Source: a virus (taxonomy: Duplodnaviria > Heunggongvirae > Uroviricota > Caudoviricetes). Taken from it: DNA of 24,199 nucleotides. The DNA is taken from IMG/VR virus record IMGVR_UViG_3300000288_000064. The stretch is one strand, 5' to 3'. Made by a program: the position numbers and the translations under genes. The notes under the pieces were generated by a model that worked only from the letters and a program-made list of their open reading frames with translations, ran no database searches and was not told where the DNA came from. Positions 1 through 6,813 of this stretch are shown one piece after another (positions within the stretch are counted from its first letter, which is position 1; the number at the start of each line of letters is the position of its first letter).

Positions 1-82
1 AATCGATACTGGAAAAAACTCTAACTCGGTGGCCAGTTTTTGTTGACCACTTCATGCTACCACAGAGTGGTTCGGTGAATCG

Positions 83-286
83 ATGTTGATTGCGATGGAA
101 GATGATCGTTATCCAGGCTGCCCTGTTTTTGCCTGTGTTGATTTGCCAGAAGGCGCGGTACTTGAAGACGACAAAGAAGAATGCTCGTCTGATGGCGAAC
201 TTGTCATTACTGGAATCGTTGATGGTAAGCCGGAATACTCTCGTATTGAGGTAAATAACGGCCGCATCCGTTTGATCCCTGCGTAA
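83..286 (+). CDS. hypothetical small acidic protein (67 aa)
   Basis: ATG-initiated ORF with protein-like, acidic composition; the overlapping minus-strand ORF (109..441) is Ser/Pro-rich low complexity. No recognisable motif. Confidence 0.3.
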   Translation: MLIAMEDDRYPGCPVFACVDLPEGAVLEDDKEECSSDGELVITGIVDGKPEYSRIEVNNGRIRLIPA

Positions 287-347
287 CGCATTACAGCAGC
301 TCTTGTGCTTACCAGGGGCTGCGATAATGCGCAAACCAAAGCTGCCT

Positions 348-377
348 CATTAACTCCAGCTCGCTGTGGAGTTAATG
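348..377. repeat. perfect 11-bp inverted repeat (cattaactcca / tggagttaatg) with 8-nt loop; candidate terminator or operator
   Basis: Read directly: 348..358 is the exact reverse complement of 367..377; a T-run (386..391) follows after an 8-nt spacer. Lies between ORF 83..286 and the ParB cassette. Confidence 0.3.
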
Positions 378-520
378 CTGGTGGCTTTTTTATTACTGGA
401 AGGTGGGCGACCGCCGTCAGTTGCGACCTGACGACAGTCATTCATACCCACAGGGTGCCGTGGATACAAACCGAGGCCCACTTGCTTGCACAAGCGAGGG
501 GATTTTAGCGGATAAACGGC

Positions 521-1144
521 ATGACAAAACATCTTAATGTGGTTTCTTTACCACTTTCTGTGTTGATTGGTTATGAAAAGAACGCTCGCACACACTCCGT
601 GGAGCAGGTAGATCAGATTATTGCCAGCATACAGGAGTACGGATGGACTAATCCGATCCTGATAGACGAGAACAACGTTGTAATTGCTGGTCATGGTCGA
701 ATTGCTGCGGCCACTCAGTTGGGGATGGATGATGTTCCCTGCATTGTTCTGGCTGGGCTAACGGAGAATCAGAAGAAGGCATATCGTCTGGCCGACAACC
801 GTATTCCGCTGAATGCTGGTTGGGATGAAGAGTTGTTAAGCGCGGAGCTTGCAGATCTTGCGGCCGATGATTTTGCTCTGGACTCAATTGGTTTTACTCA
901 GCGCGAACTGGATAACTTATTGAGTGCGGCGGTCTACGATGACACAGAGGGTATGGATATCCCATTTGAGAAGGATGAGGCCAAATCAGGCGTAAAAGTT
1001 CAGTACCTGTCATTTGGAGGTCATAAAATCCCGGCAACGGATGAGGAAGCGGATCGTTTTGACTGCGCGGTGTCTCGTTATGTTGATGATAATGGCAGCT
1101 ATATCGGATTTGTATCCGCATTGCTGGCTGGGGAGGTGTGCTGA
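521..1144 (+). CDS. ParB-like N-terminal domain protein (ParB/sulfiredoxin fold), copy 1
   Basis: N-terminal region (YEKNARTHSVEQVDQIIASIQEYGWTNPILID...IAGHGRIAAA) matches the ParB-N box with GxGR motif that often precedes phage DNA methylases; about 100-aa acidic C-terminal extension. Stop overlaps the next start. Confidence 0.8.
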   Translation: MTKHLNVVSLPLSVLIGYEKNARTHSVEQVDQIIASIQEYGWTNPILIDENNVVIAGHGRIAAATQLGMDDVPCIVLAGLTENQKKAYRLADNRIPLNAGWDEELLSAELADLAADDFALDSIGFTQRELDNLLSAAVYDDTEGMDIPFEKDEAKSGVKVQYLSFGGHKIPATDEEADRFDCAVSRYVDDNGSYIGFVSALLAGEVC

Positions 1145-2517
1145 TGCTTCACCTCAATTACGACATAACGCACCTACGCGGCGCGGAATATAACCCGCGT
1201 TTTATCGGTGAGGATGATCTTGCGAGGCTGGCGGAAAGCGTCAGGGAGCTGGGGCTTGTGAAGCCATTGATAGTGCGCGGCGATTTGCTGGTGGCGGGAC
1301 ACCAAAGGACGAAGGCGCTACGTAAGTTGGGAATAACGCGTGCTGCGGTGTATGTGTTGCCCTGTGAAACGACGGTATACGACGAAGTACGGTTTAACCA
1401 ACTGCATAACGGAACGGATTTTGATAGCGGAGATGAGCGTTGCAGGGTGTCCGGTCTGGAAGATAAGCATGGTTTTGTTCAGGTATCGGCAAGCCAGATC
1501 TCAGGCAATATGCGCGCGAAAATGGCATATGTTCGAAAGAACATAGCGGAACTGGTTATCAAGTATGGTCCGTGGGGTGGTTGTGTTGCTACTCAGTCTG
1601 GTGAGGTTATTCACTGTGCTCAGTATGCATTAGCAGCGAAAATGACGCGCACACCGCTAACGGTGTTTGTGATCCCTGATGTTGAGAAGGAAAAATACCA
1701 AAGTTATCTGAATAAAACTTATGGTGTATTTGAGTATTCTCATCTGGAGAAAACAACATACATCCAGACGTATGCGCAGCTTATGCGGTTGCGTAATGGT
1801 GGCAGCCTGAAATCAAATCTGTATGAGTCGTTGATCCTCCCGATCGTTGCCAAGACGCCAAGAGGAATTGATTTTGGTTCGGGGCAGGGAGACTACGCGC
1901 GAATGCTCAGGGCAAAGGGATATAACCTGCATGATCTTGAGCTTTTTCGCCGTAAGGGCGCTGGAAACACTCTGGATAGGGCTGCAACAAACCGAATGAT
2001 TGATACGCTGGTGGACGACTTAAAAACGCGAGGGCGTTACGACTACGTGATTTGCGATAGCGTTTTGAACTCGGTCGATAGTGTCGAGGCTGAATGGTCC
2101 GTTCTGACGGTTCTGAAAGGCCTGTGTAAAGCTGGTGGGTCAATATTCTTTTCTGGTCGTAGCCGTGGAGAGCTGGAAACAGTCCTGAAGCAAACACAAG
2201 CGGCGAGTTCCAAAAGCCGGCTTTATTTTATTGATCATAACGGTTTTACCGCGTTGTACCGGAAGGGGCACTGGTTTTACCAGAAGTTTCACTCTGATGA
2301 TGAAGTGAAGCAGTTGTGTCGTGTACATGGTTTCAGGATTAAGCGGTCAATATTCAACTGTAATAGCTGGTATTTGCACGTCATTAACGATGATTCCCTT
2401 AGTTGGGCGAGTCTGGAGAAAGCTGTTCGTTTTGAGTTTGAGTTGCCGTTGCCTGGTGGTTCAACAATCGGACGATCTGATGATGTGCTGGCGGCTTTCC
2501 GGCCGTTGATTAAGTAG
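1144..2517 (+). CDS. fusion protein: ParB-like N-terminal domain + class I SAM-dependent methyltransferase-like domain
   Basis: N-terminus has a ParB-N box (LVKPLIVRGDLLVAGHQRTKAL). C-terminal half carries Rossmann-fold MTase motif I (GIDFGSGQGDY, about 1864..1893) and a post-II-like motif (YDYVICDSVL, about 2038..2067). Start chosen as ATG 1144 (GGGAGG 7 nt upstream, TGATG overlap); in-frame GTG at 1138 is the alternative. Confidence 0.75.
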   Translation: MLHLNYDITHLRGAEYNPRFIGEDDLARLAESVRELGLVKPLIVRGDLLVAGHQRTKALRKLGITRAAVYVLPCETTVYDEVRFNQLHNGTDFDSGDERCRVSGLEDKHGFVQVSASQISGNMRAKMAYVRKNIAELVIKYGPWGGCVATQSGEVIHCAQYALAAKMTRTPLTVFVIPDVEKEKYQSYLNKTYGVFEYSHLEKTTYIQTYAQLMRLRNGGSLKSNLYESLILPIVAKTPRGIDFGSGQGDYARMLRAKGYNLHDLELFRRKGAGNTLDRAATNRMIDTLVDDLKTRGRYDYVICDSVLNSVDSVEAEWSVLTVLKGLCKAGGSIFFSGRSRGELETVLKQTQAASSKSRLYFIDHNGFTALYRKGHWFYQKFHSDDEVKQLCRVHGFRIKRSIFNCNSWYLHVINDDSLSWASLEKAVRFEFELPLPGGSTIGRSDDVLAAFRPLIK

Positions 2518-2533
2518 TGTGTAGGAGGCGCTG

Positions 2534-3253
2534 GTGGCTGACAGAATTGAGATAAAGATGGATTTTTCTTCTCAGGATATTCAACGACAACTCCAGCGCC
2601 TTGAAGAACGCGAATTGCCGTTCGCAATGGCGCTTGCGGCAACCAGAACGGCAAAGGCTTCTCAGGCTGCGATTAAGAATGAAATTAATCGGGTATTTGA
2701 CAGGCCCACGCCGTGGATTCAGAACTCTACTTACGTTTTGGCCGCAAAGAAGAGTGATCCTACAGCCATTGTGTATGCTCGTGAATGGGGAGGAACGCCA
2801 GCCCCTGTAACGTTGACTCCGCAAATCGAAGGTGGCCAACGACAGTACAAACGCTCAGAAGGGGCGCTAAGGGCTGGTGGATATTTGCCTAACGGCTGGC
2901 AGCTTGCTCCTGGTCCCGGCGCAAAGCTGGACAAATACGGGAATATTTCGCGGGGGCAATTACAGCAGGTCTTATCTGGCCTAAGAGTTCAGCGAGATGC
3001 GCATCAAAATCGCCGTCAGGGCAAGCCTACGGAGTTTTTTGTTGTTCGACCTGGTACAAGTAACCCGCTTCAACCAGGCGTCTGGCAGCGCGTTGGGCGG
3101 CGTCCTACGTTGATCCTTACGTTTATCCAGCAACCTAACTATTCGCAGCGTCTTGATTGGCATGGCGTGGCGCTGCGTGCTGGTGAGGATGCGTTTGCTG
3201 ATGAAGTCACAAAGGCTATTGATGACATTCTTTCTAAGACCTTCTCTCGTTAA
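2534..3253 (+). CDS. hypothetical protein (239 aa), third gene of the ParB/MTase cassette
   Basis: GTG start with a perfect AGGAGG 5 nt upstream, 16 nt after the previous stop; GC-rich coding composition; Gly/Pro/Arg/Gln-rich with no motif I can recognise. Confidence 0.6.
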   Translation: MADRIEIKMDFSSQDIQRQLQRLEERELPFAMALAATRTAKASQAAIKNEINRVFDRPTPWIQNSTYVLAAKKSDPTAIVYAREWGGTPAPVTLTPQIEGGQRQYKRSEGALRAGGYLPNGWQLAPGPGAKLDKYGNISRGQLQQVLSGLRVQRDAHQNRRQGKPTEFFVVRPGTSNPLQPGVWQRVGRRPTLILTFIQQPNYSQRLDWHGVALRAGEDAFADEVTKAIDDILSKTFSR

Positions 3254-3444
3254 TCATCGTGTGGTTGATGGTGTTGTTATGCAGAGTGTATTCACTGTGT
3301 TCTGTAGCGTCGCTCGCTGGCTGTCTGTGGGGGAGCACGAGCATCGTTTCATCGTCCGGCAGAATTGGGTCCTTCTGGCCAAAAGCGTTGGATGCGGGTC
3401 ATTCGAACCCCGATATTCGGCTAGCTAAACGTGAAAAAAGTTAG

Positions 3445-3809
3445 GTTAAAAGTTGCGGTAAAAGAAATTTACTCATCTCATTGAAAAATATCGGGAAAAC
3501 GTGATTTTTTCTGTATTTGTGCTGGTAAAAAGAAAGTGGAAAATTTTCTTTTAGATCATCAAGATACGCGCAGATCTTTAACCAATGTGATGTTGTTCTG
3601 ATAAAAATCGTTATAAATCATGCAAATACATCCAATCTTTTAACCAAAACACCATCGCAAGATCCTTTTTACTTATAAAAACTTAATAAAATCAGATAAT
3701 TATGCTGGTTTGTGTGATTTTTCATGAGTAAAAAGATCGTCATTTTTCTCTTTTAGTATCAATAAGTTAAACAGTTTTCTTTAACCTGTTGTGTTATGGC
3801 GGTTAAAAA
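3445..3809. promoter_or_regulatory. AT-rich intergenic spacer, probable promoter/regulatory region for the packaging-morphogenesis operon
   Basis: The only long non-coding gap among + strand genes; several TATAAA-like and TTGAAA/TTGATA-like hexamers, but no single promoter could be pinned by eye. Confidence 0.35.
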
Positions 3810-4400
3810 ATGGCTCTAAAAATCGAATATTTACCAGTCGGTAAGTTGCTCAGATATGCCAAAAATTCACGGACTCATTCAGATGAGCAAGTTGAACAGT
3901 TGGTGAACAGTATCCGTGAGTTCGGTTTCACTAATCCTGTGCTGATCGATGAAAAGAATGAACTGATTGCGGGGCATGGGCGGCTTGCAGCAGCCGAAAT
4001 TCTGGAAATGGATAAAGTTCCGGCGATTCGGTTGAGTAACCTTTCTGAAAAACAGAAGAAGGCTTACAGGATTGCAGATAACAAGCTGGCCTTAAATGCT
4101 GGCTGGGATATGCAGCTTCTGGCCGAAGAAGTCAAAGAGTTAATGGATGATGATTTTGATATTGATCTGCTTGGGTTTAATGATGCAGAGCTTGACGAAA
4201 TGTTAAGCGATGAACAGCCGCAGGAAGAAGACGATAATTCTTCCCCTGTTGTTCAAATTAAGTACCTGGCTATTGATAAAGAACGTATTCCCGCGACGGA
4301 TATGGAAATTGCATTGTTGCTGGATGTTTATCGTCAGTACCACGACGCGCATGAAACGCATGAGGGATTTGTTCAGTATCTTGCTAATGGTTGCAAGTAA
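3810..4400 (+). CDS. ParB-like N-terminal domain protein, copy 2 (paralog of 521..1144)
   Basis: Collinear similarity to copy 1 over the whole length (YAKNSRTHSDEQVEQLVNSIREFGFTNPVLID...IAGHGRLAAA...QKKAYRIADNKLALNAGWD...IPATD). Stop overlaps the small terminase start. Confidence 0.8.
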   Translation: MALKIEYLPVGKLLRYAKNSRTHSDEQVEQLVNSIREFGFTNPVLIDEKNELIAGHGRLAAAEILEMDKVPAIRLSNLSEKQKKAYRIADNKLALNAGWDMQLLAEEVKELMDDDFDIDLLGFNDAELDEMLSDEQPQEEDDNSSPVVQIKYLAIDKERIPATDMEIALLLDVYRQYHDAHETHEGFVQYLANGCK

Positions 4401-4951
4401 TGGCCATCGTCAGTAAGTCAGAGTTTGCCCGCCGGAAAGGTATTTCTCCGGCAATGGTTACGAAGCTCTGTCGTTCCGGTCGCATTCCAGTGCTGAAAAG
4501 CGGCAAGCTGGATTTTGATAAAGCCAGTGCGGCTTATGAAGCGAGCCGACAGGTTGGTCGTGAGGTATCTGCTGAAAATGGAAAAAGAGGGCATGGGATA
4601 TCTTCGGAACAACCAGAGTTACCCGCTGATGATGCCGGATTAGCTGGTGGTACTTCCGGTGTTGCGGTGCAATTCAACAAGGCTAAGACCGCAGAAAAAA
4701 TTTATCAGGCAAAGCTGAAACGCCTTGAATTTGAAGAAAAGGAAGGCTCTCTCATCGCTAAAGATGCGGTCAGGGATGATGCATTTCTGGCAGCTAATGA
4801 ATTGCGTAGCCGCTTATTTAGTATTGCTCCAAGAGCAGCTCCCCGTTGTGAAGGCAAAACAGCCAGGGAGATCGAGCGCATTATTGAAGACGAGATTAAT
4901 TTTGCGCTTCAGGCGCTCCAGGAATCCCGATTTATTAAGCAGGAAGAATAA
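4400..4951 (+). CDS. terminase small subunit (Nu1-like architecture)
   Basis: Sits immediately upstream of the large terminase; N-terminal helix-turn-helix-like segment (SKSEFARRKGISPAMVTKLCRSGRIPV) and central coiled-coil-like region, as in lambda Nu1. ATG at 4400; the ORF track opens at an upstream TTG (4391). Confidence 0.6.
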   Translation: MAIVSKSEFARRKGISPAMVTKLCRSGRIPVLKSGKLDFDKASAAYEASRQVGREVSAENGKRGHGISSEQPELPADDAGLAGGTSGVAVQFNKAKTAEKIYQAKLKRLEFEEKEGSLIAKDAVRDDAFLAANELRSRLFSIAPRAAPRCEGKTAREIERIIEDEINFALQALQESRFIKQEE

Positions 4952-4956
4952 ACCTC

Positions 4957-6813
4957 ATGGGCGAAACAGTATGGAGCACCGCTTTTTTCCGTGCGCTTCG
5001 CCCTAAATCACGGCTAACTGTTTCCGAATGGGCTGATAAGTATCGTCATGTAGCGCCGGGAACGTCTCCAGAGCCAGGGCCGTGGCGTACAAGCCGAGTG
5101 CCATATTTGCGTGAACCAATGGATGTTATTGGTGACGCTGATACAGAAACAGTAGTGATGCAATGTAGCTCGCAAATTGGTAAATCCGAATTACAGCTAA
5201 ATGTTATGGGTTACTTTGCAGATCAGGAGCCATCTCCTCAGTTGATGATTTATCCAACGGTAGAGGCGGCTGAGGCTTTTTCAAAAGAGCGTATTGATCC
5301 GACGTTCAAATATTCCCCTGGTTTGAAACACAAGCTGCATGAAGGGAAAGAGGGGCGCGGTGCAGCCAAAAAGTCCAGCACGACTATACGTATGAAGCAT
5401 TACGCTGGTGGATATATAGCACTTGTTGGTGCTAATTCCCCAGCAGGTCTTGCATCCAGGCCAATTCGAATACTGTTAGCTGATGAGATTGATCGTTACG
5501 GTGTGACGCAGGAGGGCGACCCACTAAAACTAGGTATTCAGCGTACTACCAACTTTCATAATCGTAAGAAAGTTTTTGTTTCTACTCCTGTTTTGGAGGA
5601 AACAAGCAAAATCCACAAGTGGTTTAAGCTCTCCGATCAGCGTTACTACCATGTTCCTTGCCCATGTTGTGGCACCATGCAGGTGATGAAATGGTCGCAA
5701 GTCAGATGGGATAAGAGCGATTCAGGTGAGGCGTTACCGGAAACGGCCAGATATGAGTGCTGTGAGTGCGGCGGGATTATGCGCGGATCTGGTAAACCAG
5801 ACGTTGATTGGTTGGCGAAGGGGGTATGGATAGCTGAACATACTGGAGTTAAAGGTATTGTTGGTTTTCATATTAACAGTCTTTACTCCCCGTGGGTTGC
5901 ATTGTCAGAGCTGGTTGAAGAATTTACGGAAGCAACCAGAAACCGCGATAAAAATGGATTAATGGAGTTTATTAACCTTAAGCTGGGTGAGCCATGGAAA
6001 GAGGATGCTAAAGACGATATCGATCCTGAATACTTGTTGCAACGCAGAATAAGGTTTGAAGAGTTTTTACCAGATGATGTTTTATTGTTAAGTGCTGGTG
6101 TTGACGTACAGGACACGTATTTAGTTTGTGAATTGGTCGGTTGGGGAAAAGGTAAGGAGTCATGGGGGATAGAATATAAAATATTCCCAGGTGATCCCGC
6201 ACAAGATGTTGTCTGGAAACAACTTGATGAATACTTACTCCGTAGCTGGTCATTCCGTGACGGTCGAAAATTACAGATTTCTTCCGTTTGTATTGACTCT
6301 GGTGGGCATTTTACGACAGAGGTATATCGCTTTACTAAGCCGAGAGAATCAAGGCGAATATACTCTATCAGGGGGCGTGGTGGGGTAGGTTTACCATTTA
6401 TAGGAAAGCCAAGTAATAATAACCGTGTGGGTGCTATGTTGTTTAATTTGGGGGTTGATGATGGTAAAGGGACCATCATGGCAAGAATTAAACTACATGA
6501 TCCTGGTCCTGGTTATATGCATTTCCCATTAGATTCTGACAGAGGATATGATACCGAATACTTTAAAGGATTATTATCAGAGAAAAAAATATTTGAATAT
6601 AAAAATGGGCAGACAAAAGAAAAGTGGGTGAAAGTCTACGAGCGTAACGAGCCTCTTGATTGCCGTAACTATGCAACTGCCGCGATGGAAATTCTGAACC
6701 CTAATTTTAACTGGCTTGCCGAACAGGAAATGCGAGGTAATGTGTATGTGCAGAACTCGTCAGGTATACGTAGAAGACGCCGTAGAGTTATAAGTAAAGG
6801 CGTAACCATATAG
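4957..6813 (+). CDS. terminase large subunit, GpA family (lambda A-like)
   Basis: 618 aa; N-terminal SEWADKYRHV segment and C-terminal LDCRNYATAAMEIL segment align by eye with lambda gpA (VEWADANYY; ALDCFVYALAAL). Confidence 0.9.
   Translation: MGETVWSTAFFRALRPKSRLTVSEWADKYRHVAPGTSPEPGPWRTSRVPYLREPMDVIGDADTETVVMQCSSQIGKSELQLNVMGYFADQEPSPQLMIYPTVEAAEAFSKERIDPTFKYSPGLKHKLHEGKEGRGAAKKSSTTIRMKHYAGGYIALVGANSPAGLASRPIRILLADEIDRYGVTQEGDPLKLGIQRTTNFHNRKKVFVSTPVLEETSKIHKWFKLSDQRYYHVPCPCCGTMQVMKWSQVRWDKSDSGEALPETARYECCECGGIMRGSGKPDVDWLAKGVWIAEHTGVKGIVGFHINSLYSPWVALSELVEEFTEATRNRDKNGLMEFINLKLGEPWKEDAKDDIDPEYLLQRRIRFEEFLPDDVLLLSAGVDVQDTYLVCELVGWGKGKESWGIEYKIFPGDPAQDVVWKQLDEYLLRSWSFRDGRKLQISSVCIDSGGHFTTEVYRFTKPRESRRIYSIRGRGGVGLPFIGKPSNNNRVGAMLFNLGVDDGKGTIMARIKLHDPGPGYMHFPLDSDRGYDTEYFKGLLSEKKIFEYKNGQTKEKWVKVYERNEPLDCRNYATAAMEILNPNFNWLAEQEMRGNVYVQNSSGIRRRRRRVISKGVTI

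Follow-up and report, generated by a model that had tools for sequence, protein, structure and literature searches.

The window considered here, i.e. the whole 24,199-nucleotide stretch of tailed-phage DNA recorded as IMGVR_UViG_3300000288_000064, carries at positions 1144..2517 of the + strand a gene encoding a 457-residue protein in which two ParB/Srx folds are fused to a class I methyltransferase dependent on S-adenosylmethionine (SAM). This fusion protein may be a three-domain late phage enzyme: gated by ATP and delivered by its ParB folds, it would mark phage DNA in a non-canonical way ahead of packaging, a reading to which we assign a probability of about 40%. Its family has been catalogued (phrog_5475, E = 9e-265, residues 1–457 on positions 1–457 of a 458-position profile), under the PHROG label "unknown function", and is nevertheless a variant of the ParB-methyltransferase theme that is new relative to the characterized systems. 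The second, cryptic ParB/Srx fold, the near-invariant SAM site with an accompanying D-x-V-x-N-S motif, the pairing with a short ParB and the linkage to the terminase are the new elements.

The AlphaFold2 model of the protein has a predicted local distance difference test score (pLDDT) of 90.3 and a predicted template modelling score of 0.86, with low pLDDT confined to residues 209–221. Five segments follow one another along the + strand. Domain 1, a ParB N-terminal fold of the type that binds nucleoside triphosphates (NTPs), comprises residues 1–92 (1144..1419), and domain 2, the cryptic ParB/Srx fold, residues 93–190 (1420..1713). A conserved segment, either a linker or a lid at the N-terminus of the methyltransferase, with the pattern YGVF.Y...Q..AQ..R (residues 191–234; 1714..1845) leads to the class I SAM methyltransferase core (residues 235–415; 1846..2388), and a C-terminal helical tail with a conserved EF...GR motif (residues 416–457; 2389..2517, including the stop codon) completes the protein. 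Conservation was assessed in 225 distinct full-length family members with 32–99% identity. Y193, G194, Y198, Q208, Q212 and R215 of the linker are 99–100% conserved, as are, at 98–99%, E431 and F432 of the tail, the helices of which span residues 421–431 and 445–456.

The initial annotation had recognized a SAM-binding motif I, GIDFGSGQG, and a post-II-like motif in the methyltransferase domain, and both are present, the first at residues 241–249 (nucleotides 1864–1890) and the second within YDYVICDSVLNSVD at residues 299–312 (nucleotides 2038–2079), which contains the family motif IV, D-x-V-x-N-S. It had also claimed that the protein has no (D/N/S)PP(Y/F/W) tetrapeptide and neither the PCQ nor the ENV motif. 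A regular-expression scan of the 457 residues bore this out, as it found no [DNS]PP[YFWH], PP dipeptide, PC[QK] or ENV, and the first and third of these patterns were also absent from all of the homologues fetched (0/120). No alignment revealed a divergent DPPY-type loop that a visual scan could have missed. The post-β4 loop, where such a loop would sit, reads D-S-V-L-N-S-V-D; none of the 120 members has a proline in or near it, and P239 is the single proline of the core of the window protein. There is no invariant cysteine in a 32-sequence alignment of the family (C304 is replaced by leucine or serine), which argues against covalent C5-type catalysis. The absence of a motif from one protein would mean little, but the loss is meaningful here because it extends across a family with 32–99% identity in which a different post-β4 motif, D305-x-V307-x-N309-S310, is 96–100% conserved. 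The SAM-site residues D243, G245, G247, E266 (the ribose-binding acid, within nucleotides 1930–1953) and D305 are conserved to the same extent, as are R339, D364, W377, Q380 and H383 in what is usually the substrate pocket; the sequence WFYQKFH lies on β6–β7 (nucleotides 2254–2295). Given the near-invariance of the SAM site and of D-x-V-x-N-S, the methyltransferase domain is probably an active enzyme with an intact SAM site.

The domain has a Rossmann-like seven-stranded fold with DxGxGxG and with acidic residues after β2 and β4. It matches Methyltransf_23 (PF13489) in Pfam at 31.5 bits against a cut-off of 27 (residues 236–398), a profile matched by all 19 of the diverse family members scanned, none of which (0/19) matched N6_Mtase, N6_N4_Mtase, MT-A70 or DNA_methylase. 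In a comparison of the family profile with PDB sequences, UbiG was the best match (E = 1e-6), and a lysine methyltransferase was among the weak ones. The top Foldseek matches were uncharacterized SAM methyltransferases, Trm9, glycine N-methyltransferase, METTL6 and CcbJ, and the structural neighbours also include tRNA mo5U34 methyltransferase, cap guanine-N7 methyltransferase and the non-methyl SAM users MccD and AzeJ. Neither the structural comparisons nor the curated profiles placed the domain closest to a DNA amino-methyltransferase family. The UbiG profile match, the Foldseek neighbours and Pfam thus agree with the earlier proposal of a class I methyltransferase of small-molecule or RNA type, rather than a Dam or N4C enzyme, with an open substrate. 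Identity to UbiG (4kdr), Trm9 (5cm2), toxoflavin N-methyltransferase (5ufm), TehB, METTL6 and glycine N-methyltransferase is only 12–20%, and the class I enzymes of UbiG/Trm9 type have no ParB fusion and no phage packaging context; their LEH/LHH corresponds to LNS in the window protein. Some nucleic-acid N-methyltransferases, such as RsmH, likewise lack DPPY. The absence of DPPY rules out the canonical mechanism, but not DNA as a target, and the fold class does not fix the substrate.

Domain 1 matches ParB_N in Pfam at 24.3 bits (E = 3e-5), just under the cut-off of 26.3, and phrog_620 with E = 3e-14; the family profile aligns it with Spo0J (6sdk, E = 1e-8). Box I (YNPR, nucleotides 1189–1200) and Box II (GHQR, nucleotides 1297–1308) are both present, and their residues Y16, N17, P18, R19, G52, H53, Q54 and R55 are 98–100% conserved (100% for GHQR). 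A Box III-like segment, FNQLHNGTDFD (nucleotides 1393–1425), extends into domain 2. In this segment, the equivalent of the ENxxR motif is F84-N85-Q86-L-H88-N89, in which the asparagine is retained and the glutamate and arginine are substituted, changes that suggest nucleotide binding without canonical hydrolysis. Domain 2, to which Pfam is blind, has the α+β fold of the ParB/Srx group and superposes best on sulfiredoxin, SbnI, SerK, Osa, PadC and KorB. No significant sequence similarity between the two domains was found with hhalign, and the duplication is therefore seen in structure only. In domain 2, the position of the Box II arginine is occupied by the near-invariant Y161 (HCAQY, nucleotides 1612–1626). 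This domain resembles the enzymatic ParB/Srx proteins (sulfiredoxin, the serine kinases SerK and SbnI, and Osa), but, unlike sulfiredoxin, it has no catalytic cysteine motif, and it also lacks the Box II arginine; residues of kinase or nuclease type were not assignable in it. Pfam detected no helix-turn-helix (HTH) or ParB_C domain in the fusion protein, the model of which consists of the two ParB/Srx folds and the methyltransferase only, and no ParA-like open reading frame (ORF) adjoins the gene in the window, the syntenic plasmid or the annotated loci examined. In these respects, the protein is unlike the ParB of ParABS systems.

A survey of the ParB-CTPase fold published in PNAS in 2025 includes ParB plus Methyltransferase-23 (PF13489) as a phage-enriched fusion described as "predicted DNA methyltransferase", and its supplement presents one such protein, "Mtase23" (GA118), as an ATP binder (PMC12704722). 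This protein has Box II, GHQRTKA, at residues 52–58, a Box I helix, DSAFAELKGSLKTL, at residues 21–34 and a loop, GFILP, at residues 35–39 (PMC12704722). The window protein has GHQRTKA at exactly residues 52–58, and three members of its family (P0232, P0239 and L121) have ...LKGSL..LGFILP at residues 21–39 and GHQRTK[AT] from residue 52. As the Box I and Box II features coincide at the same coordinates, the ATP binder "Mtase23", judged from these segments, almost certainly belongs to the same family, in which case a likely member binds ATP rather than CTP. A change of the Box II arginine to alanine abolished nucleotide binding by the positive binders of the survey (PMC12704722). Domain 1 of the fusion protein, to judge from its sequence, probably binds ATP. 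The fusions described in the survey resemble the window protein in domain architecture, phage enrichment and Box II; the accessible part of the article reports assays of nucleotide binding only, and is silent on the lack of the catalytic motif, on a second ParB fold, on the gene for a partner and on linkage to the terminase (PMC12704722).

The partner gene, sParB1 (521..1144, + strand), encodes a short ParB-like protein of 207 residues (phrog_620, E = 1e-73). Its stop codon overlaps the ATG of the fusion ORF (TGATG), and a ribosome-binding site, GGGGAGG, lies just before this ATG. The neighbourhood of the family was sampled at 109 loci, which collapse into 75 lineages at 90% identity, 63 with enough flanking sequence for counts upstream and 57 for counts downstream. 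A short ParB ORF lies directly upstream of the fusion gene, on the same strand, in 56 of the 63 lineages, and a large terminase gene starts no more than 5 kb downstream of the module (at 1–5 kb) in at least 41 of the 57. The terminases concerned vary (GpA, Terminase_6, Terminase_3 and TerL_ATPase), which implies that the module is transferred as a whole and retains its position upstream of the packaging genes, of whichever type these are. sParB1 matches the ParB module of ParB-N6/N4 DNA methyltransferases over about 150 residues (E = 2e-50 on positions 31–181 of phrog_498; E = 4e-37 on positions 14–158 of the PADLOC model MTase_II).

A third conserved gene, encoding a Cys/His-rich protein of about 150 residues, is found directly downstream of the fusion gene in 31 of the 57 lineages (for example L022:1589-2038(+), L046:7395-7856(+), L055:7367-7819(+) and L027:7364-7822(-)). 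The protein is characterized by the motifs FRYLWLK, HCARCL, YLCGV, NxH and TCRNFQFG and has no relative in Pfam, PHROG or PDB; its invariant histidines and cysteines suggest a metal site, and it may be a third component of the module. No fusion of the methyltransferase with the downstream Cys-rich protein was found among 267 proteins. The window lacks this gene, the slot being filled by a phrog_1924 gene.

The family is widely distributed. A large protein collection contains 739 homologues, and among the matches listed nearly all carry PF13489 and most also PF02195. A search of 1.84 billion representatives with a profile of the methyltransferase half yielded 246 clusters at E<=1e-30. The best 150 matches all have the same fused architecture or are fragments thereof, with no stand-alone relative of known function among them, so that the domain appears to be without close stand-alone relatives. 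Members are found in Enterobacterales, Alphaproteobacteria, Bacillota, Planctomycetota, Myxococcota, Chloroflexota, Chlorobiota, Bacteroidota and Kiritimatiellae, spanning prophages of at least eight phyla with 33–60% identity across phyla, and the contexts examined were those of prophages, close to genes for a terminase or for tail fibres. Among deposited phage records, just seven include a family member. The longer members (495–572 residues) have no extra informative domains. NCBIfam gave only weak ParB and Noc matches, and the sole PADLOC match covered the ParB portion of a model for type II methyltransferases. A literature search by accession, phage name and keywords retrieved no functional study of the family and none of its methyltransferase activity or target. 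Prophages of Chloroflexales (Oscillochloris, Kouleothrix and Viridilinea; L101, L105, L106, L107 and L108) carry tandem arrays of two or three full-length paralogues, 55–70% identical, downstream of tail-fibre genes. These paralogues keep all of the catalytic motifs and diverge most in residues 346–415, the usual substrate-recognition region. A Bradyrhizobium prophage (L003–L005) has Amidoligase_2, GGACT/AIG2-like and MTS/N6_Mtase-like genes within a few kb of the module, neighbours that are not conserved in the other lineages. Gene types of this kind have been associated with peptide or base hypermodification.

The reading proposed here, the substrate, timing and purpose of which we infer, can be broken down into several steps. 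The ParB folds would engage in an ATP-dependent manner, within the fusion protein and/or with the co-translated short ParB, and this engagement would load the transferase onto replicated phage DNA, or hold it there, late in infection. The transferase domain would then methylate the DNA ahead of packaging. The enzyme would use neither the DPPY route to exocyclic amines nor the cysteine-dependent route to C5; its acceptor would more likely be an oxygen or a ring nitrogen, and the product would serve for protection or as a self mark. DNA is the single most likely target, given the ParB modules, the partner gene and the terminase-adjacent position. It is suggested by the homology of sParB1 to the ParB module of ParB-N6/N4 DNA methyltransferases, by the location of the module upstream of the large terminase across terminase types, and by a phage precedent, in which a short ParB activates a thymine dioxygenase (5mYOX) specifically on double-stranded DNA (PMC13229309). 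Both phage ParB proteins are short and have no obvious DNA-binding domain, and the analogy is a functional one: the partner in the 5mYOX system is an Fe/2-oxoglutarate dioxygenase that is not fused to ParB, and mutations of the NTP site had little effect (PMC13229309). DNA as the substrate is further supported by the basic methyltransferase core (median isoelectric point 9.1) and by the divergence of the Chloroflexales paralogue arrays in the substrate-recognition region, and the 33–60% identity across phyla points to a universal substrate.

Several observations weigh against DNA methylation. In fold, the domain is closest to methyltransferases that act on small molecules or tRNA, and we know of no enzyme of this methyltransferase class that methylates DNA in nature. 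No target-recognition domain or HTH was found in the fusion protein, HTH-less ParB N-domains are nucleotide-binding or dimerization modules, and the ParB/Srx fold of sulfiredoxin, SerK and SbnI is an ATP-using enzyme that acts on proteins or small molecules. A related plasmid already encodes an MT-A70 adenine methyltransferase. Genome ends also collect unrelated accessory genes. No restriction endonuclease was found beside the Chloroflexales arrays, the neighbours of which are tail-fibre genes and an HD protein, and there is thus no pairing of the restriction-modification kind to back DNA methylation, which, for members of this family, is something that we infer. A narrower proposal, in which the short ParB and the ParB-ParB-methyltransferase protein form an ATP-gated loader that installs, just before packaging and in prophages of at least eight phyla, a methylation of DNA or deoxynucleotides of a type new among enzymatic phage modifications (on a ring nitrogen or on oxygen or phosphate, and not N6-methyladenine (m6A), N4-methylcytosine (m4C) or 5-methylcytosine), is doubtful.

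The ParB/Srx folds could instead bind, and perhaps activate, a nucleotide-like ligand, with the class I domain methylating either this ligand or a metabolite akin to it; inactivation of an immune signal of the host and synthesis of a modified precursor are examples of what this could achieve. Alternatively, the domain could transfer an aminocarboxypropyl group from SAM. The closest structures are those of small-molecule methyltransferases, including the non-methyl SAM users MccD and AzeJ, domain 2 is nearest to sulfiredoxin, SbnI and SerK, and the ParB fold of a likely family member binds ATP. The invariant residues close to the active site (W377, F378, Q380, H383, N309 and S310) are also aromatic or polar, as expected for a nucleobase pocket. 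Counter-defence genes, however, are for the most part early, and a late site beside the terminase would be out of the ordinary for them; the obligatory ParB partner and the arrays of two or three paralogues are difficult to reconcile with a single small ligand, and no metabolic partner genes are conserved nearby, making an activity of this kind rather unlikely overall. A somewhat less likely function is the modification, at a late stage of infection, of tRNA or rRNA from the host or the phage, so as to tune translation or to shield tRNA from anticodon nucleases. It would account for Trm9, METTL6, tRNA mo5U34 methyltransferase and cap guanine-N7 methyltransferase among the structural neighbours, for the basic core and for a spread across phyla that fits a universal substrate, and related plasmids have a tRNA gene a few kb upstream. 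However, this tRNA gene lies outside the conserved module, scans of the window for tRNA genes and Rfam families gave no matches, the protein has no PUA, THUMP, S4 or KH domain, and ParB folds are not known as RNA-delivery modules.

The tight translational coupling to one specific partner raises the question of a protein target, which could be the short ParB itself, a protein of the host or one involved in packaging or present in the virion. Both members of the pair might even be packaged and injected, like DdrB (ParB domain) and DarB (methyltransferase domain) of phage P1. ParB-domain proteins encoded by late genes can be internal to the virion (PMC5512222), and a lysine methyltransferase is, as stated above, among the weak sequence matches. 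An identity of 33–60% across phyla with differing terminase and capsid families nonetheless speaks against a protein target confined to one lineage, the co-inherited short ParB excepted, and no precedent was found; protein methylation is less probable again than RNA methylation. A fold that merely binds SAM, as in SAMTOR, and acts as a non-catalytic SAM/ATP sensor or scaffold regulating ParB-based DNA nicking or packaging is improbable, given that conservation is just as high at N309, S310, R339, D364, W377, Q380 and H383 of the usual substrate pocket as at the residues that bind SAM. Least probable by far is an ordinary m6A or m4C DNA methyltransferase with a DPPY-type loop diverged past recognition. 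ParB-N6/N4 methyltransferase fusions are common in phages, and Methyltransf_23 fusions are filed under "predicted DNA methyltransferase" in the survey (PMC12704722), but the loop in question is proline-free in the 120 members and is a strictly conserved D-x-V-x-N-S, and the domain has no affinity to amino-methyltransferases in Pfam, PDB or structural comparisons.

The nearest counterparts of the window protein include the ParB-N6/N4 DNA methyltransferase fusions of phages and prophages (PF02195 plus PF01555; phrog_498; PADLOC MTase_II, PDLC03229; for example Bacillus cereus Bce_0392, the "ParB-methylase"). A ParB-MTase fusion encoded amid terminase genes in a B. cereus prophage was found to have non-specific nicking activity (PMC3592412, PMC5512222). 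The window protein shares with these fusions an N-terminal ParB-N domain with an (A/D)GHxR Box II, a C-terminal SAM-dependent transferase and a prophage location by terminase genes. It differs from them in that their transferase is a β-class amino-methyltransferase with DPPY, whereas its own is of the Methyltransf_23 type with D-x-V-x-N-S, and in the presence of an additional, cryptic ParB/Srx fold and of an obligatory short ParB encoded by a gene of its own.

The window is part of an Escherichia coli phage-plasmid of about 48 kb with a contractile tail. It shares 99% identity with Escherichia phage vB_EcoM-613R2 over positions 55–5000 and with Yersinia phages vB_YpM_39, 41 and 44 over positions 55–3400. 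The fusion gene is present in 71 of 5,426 complete E. coli genomes, in which 73 of its 74 copies are borne by plasmids of about 31–50 kb. The gene order, 5' to 3', is sParB1, the fusion ORF, a 239-residue gene, an AT-rich gap, sParB2, a putative small terminase gene, a GpA-type large terminase gene and the head and tail genes. The 239-residue gene (2534..3253, + strand) begins 17 nucleotides past the stop codon of the fusion gene; its product matches phrog_1924 (E = 2.5e-97), labelled "minor tail protein", and is without a match in Pfam or PDB. In several Pseudomonas siphophages (for example F10 and MD8), homologues of this protein are encoded close to the ends of the records, rather than amid the tail genes, and the label is probably wrong. 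The phrog_1924 gene accompanies the module only in the closest relatives (L010–L017), and its functional membership of the module is uncertain.

In the AT-rich non-coding gap (3254..3809, 556 nucleotides), the GC content drops to about 0.42, compared with about 0.49 before it, and the records of the three Yersinia phages all terminate within it, at window positions 3396–3408. The gap, which separates the cassette from the packaging genes, probably represents the terminus of the genome (cos) and the region controlling packaging; the pair of sParB1 and the fusion gene is located at the genome end, a short distance upstream of the packaging genes. Short repeats containing TTAACC are clustered in it, yet not more than expected by chance. 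The higher-GC cassette (521–3253) looks like an acquired module. Beyond the gap, sParB2 (3810..4400, + strand) encodes a second short ParB of 196 residues (phrog_620, E = 5e-75), in which ParB_N exceeds the Pfam cut-off. The two short ParB proteins are paralogues with 47% identity, sParB1 coupled to the fusion gene and sParB2 to the putative small terminase gene (4391..4951, + strand), which was assigned from its position only; most related phages have one short ParB gene, as opposed to the two found here. The gene at 4957..6813 (+ strand) encodes the GpA-type large terminase, as indicated by the RefSeq annotation of the syntenic plasmid (terminase large subunit) and by the GpA_ATPase and GpA_nuclease domains of its homologues.

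A scan of positions 1..5000 of the window for promoters and terminators yielded none above the shuffled expectation. A hairpin at positions 340–400 (TTAACTCCAGC...GCTGTGGAGTTAA-like), followed by a T-run and located downstream of a small ORF (83..286), was not flagged by this simple scan; it could be a terminator or an antitermination element preceding the cassette. Positions 1–55 match the end of an IS911-type insertion sequence (93–100% identity to insertion sequence ends in Shigella and Salmonella phage records), and the region upstream of the cassette, which in related plasmids contains lysis genes, a tRNA gene and the MT-A70 gene, appears to be broken by an insertion sequence in this copy.

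The routine annotation of a ParB-methyltransferase fusion is that of a DNA methylase acting on adenine or cytosine, or that of a "partition protein", and the phrog_5475 family cannot work in that way. The family is a good candidate for a new nucleic-acid or nucleotide modification. The fusion protein is an easy experimental target, being of soluble size and encoded in an E. coli host by a natural 48-kb phage-plasmid, with obvious point mutants (R55A, D243A and N309A/S310A). If its target is DNA, it would represent a new enzymatic route to DNA modification, with a bearing on the evasion of restriction by phages, and a modification that methylome pipelines and REBASE-style annotation would probably overlook. 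If the target is a nucleotide, an RNA or a protein, the ATP-binding ParB fold would gain a new job, as the regulator or carrier of a transferase.

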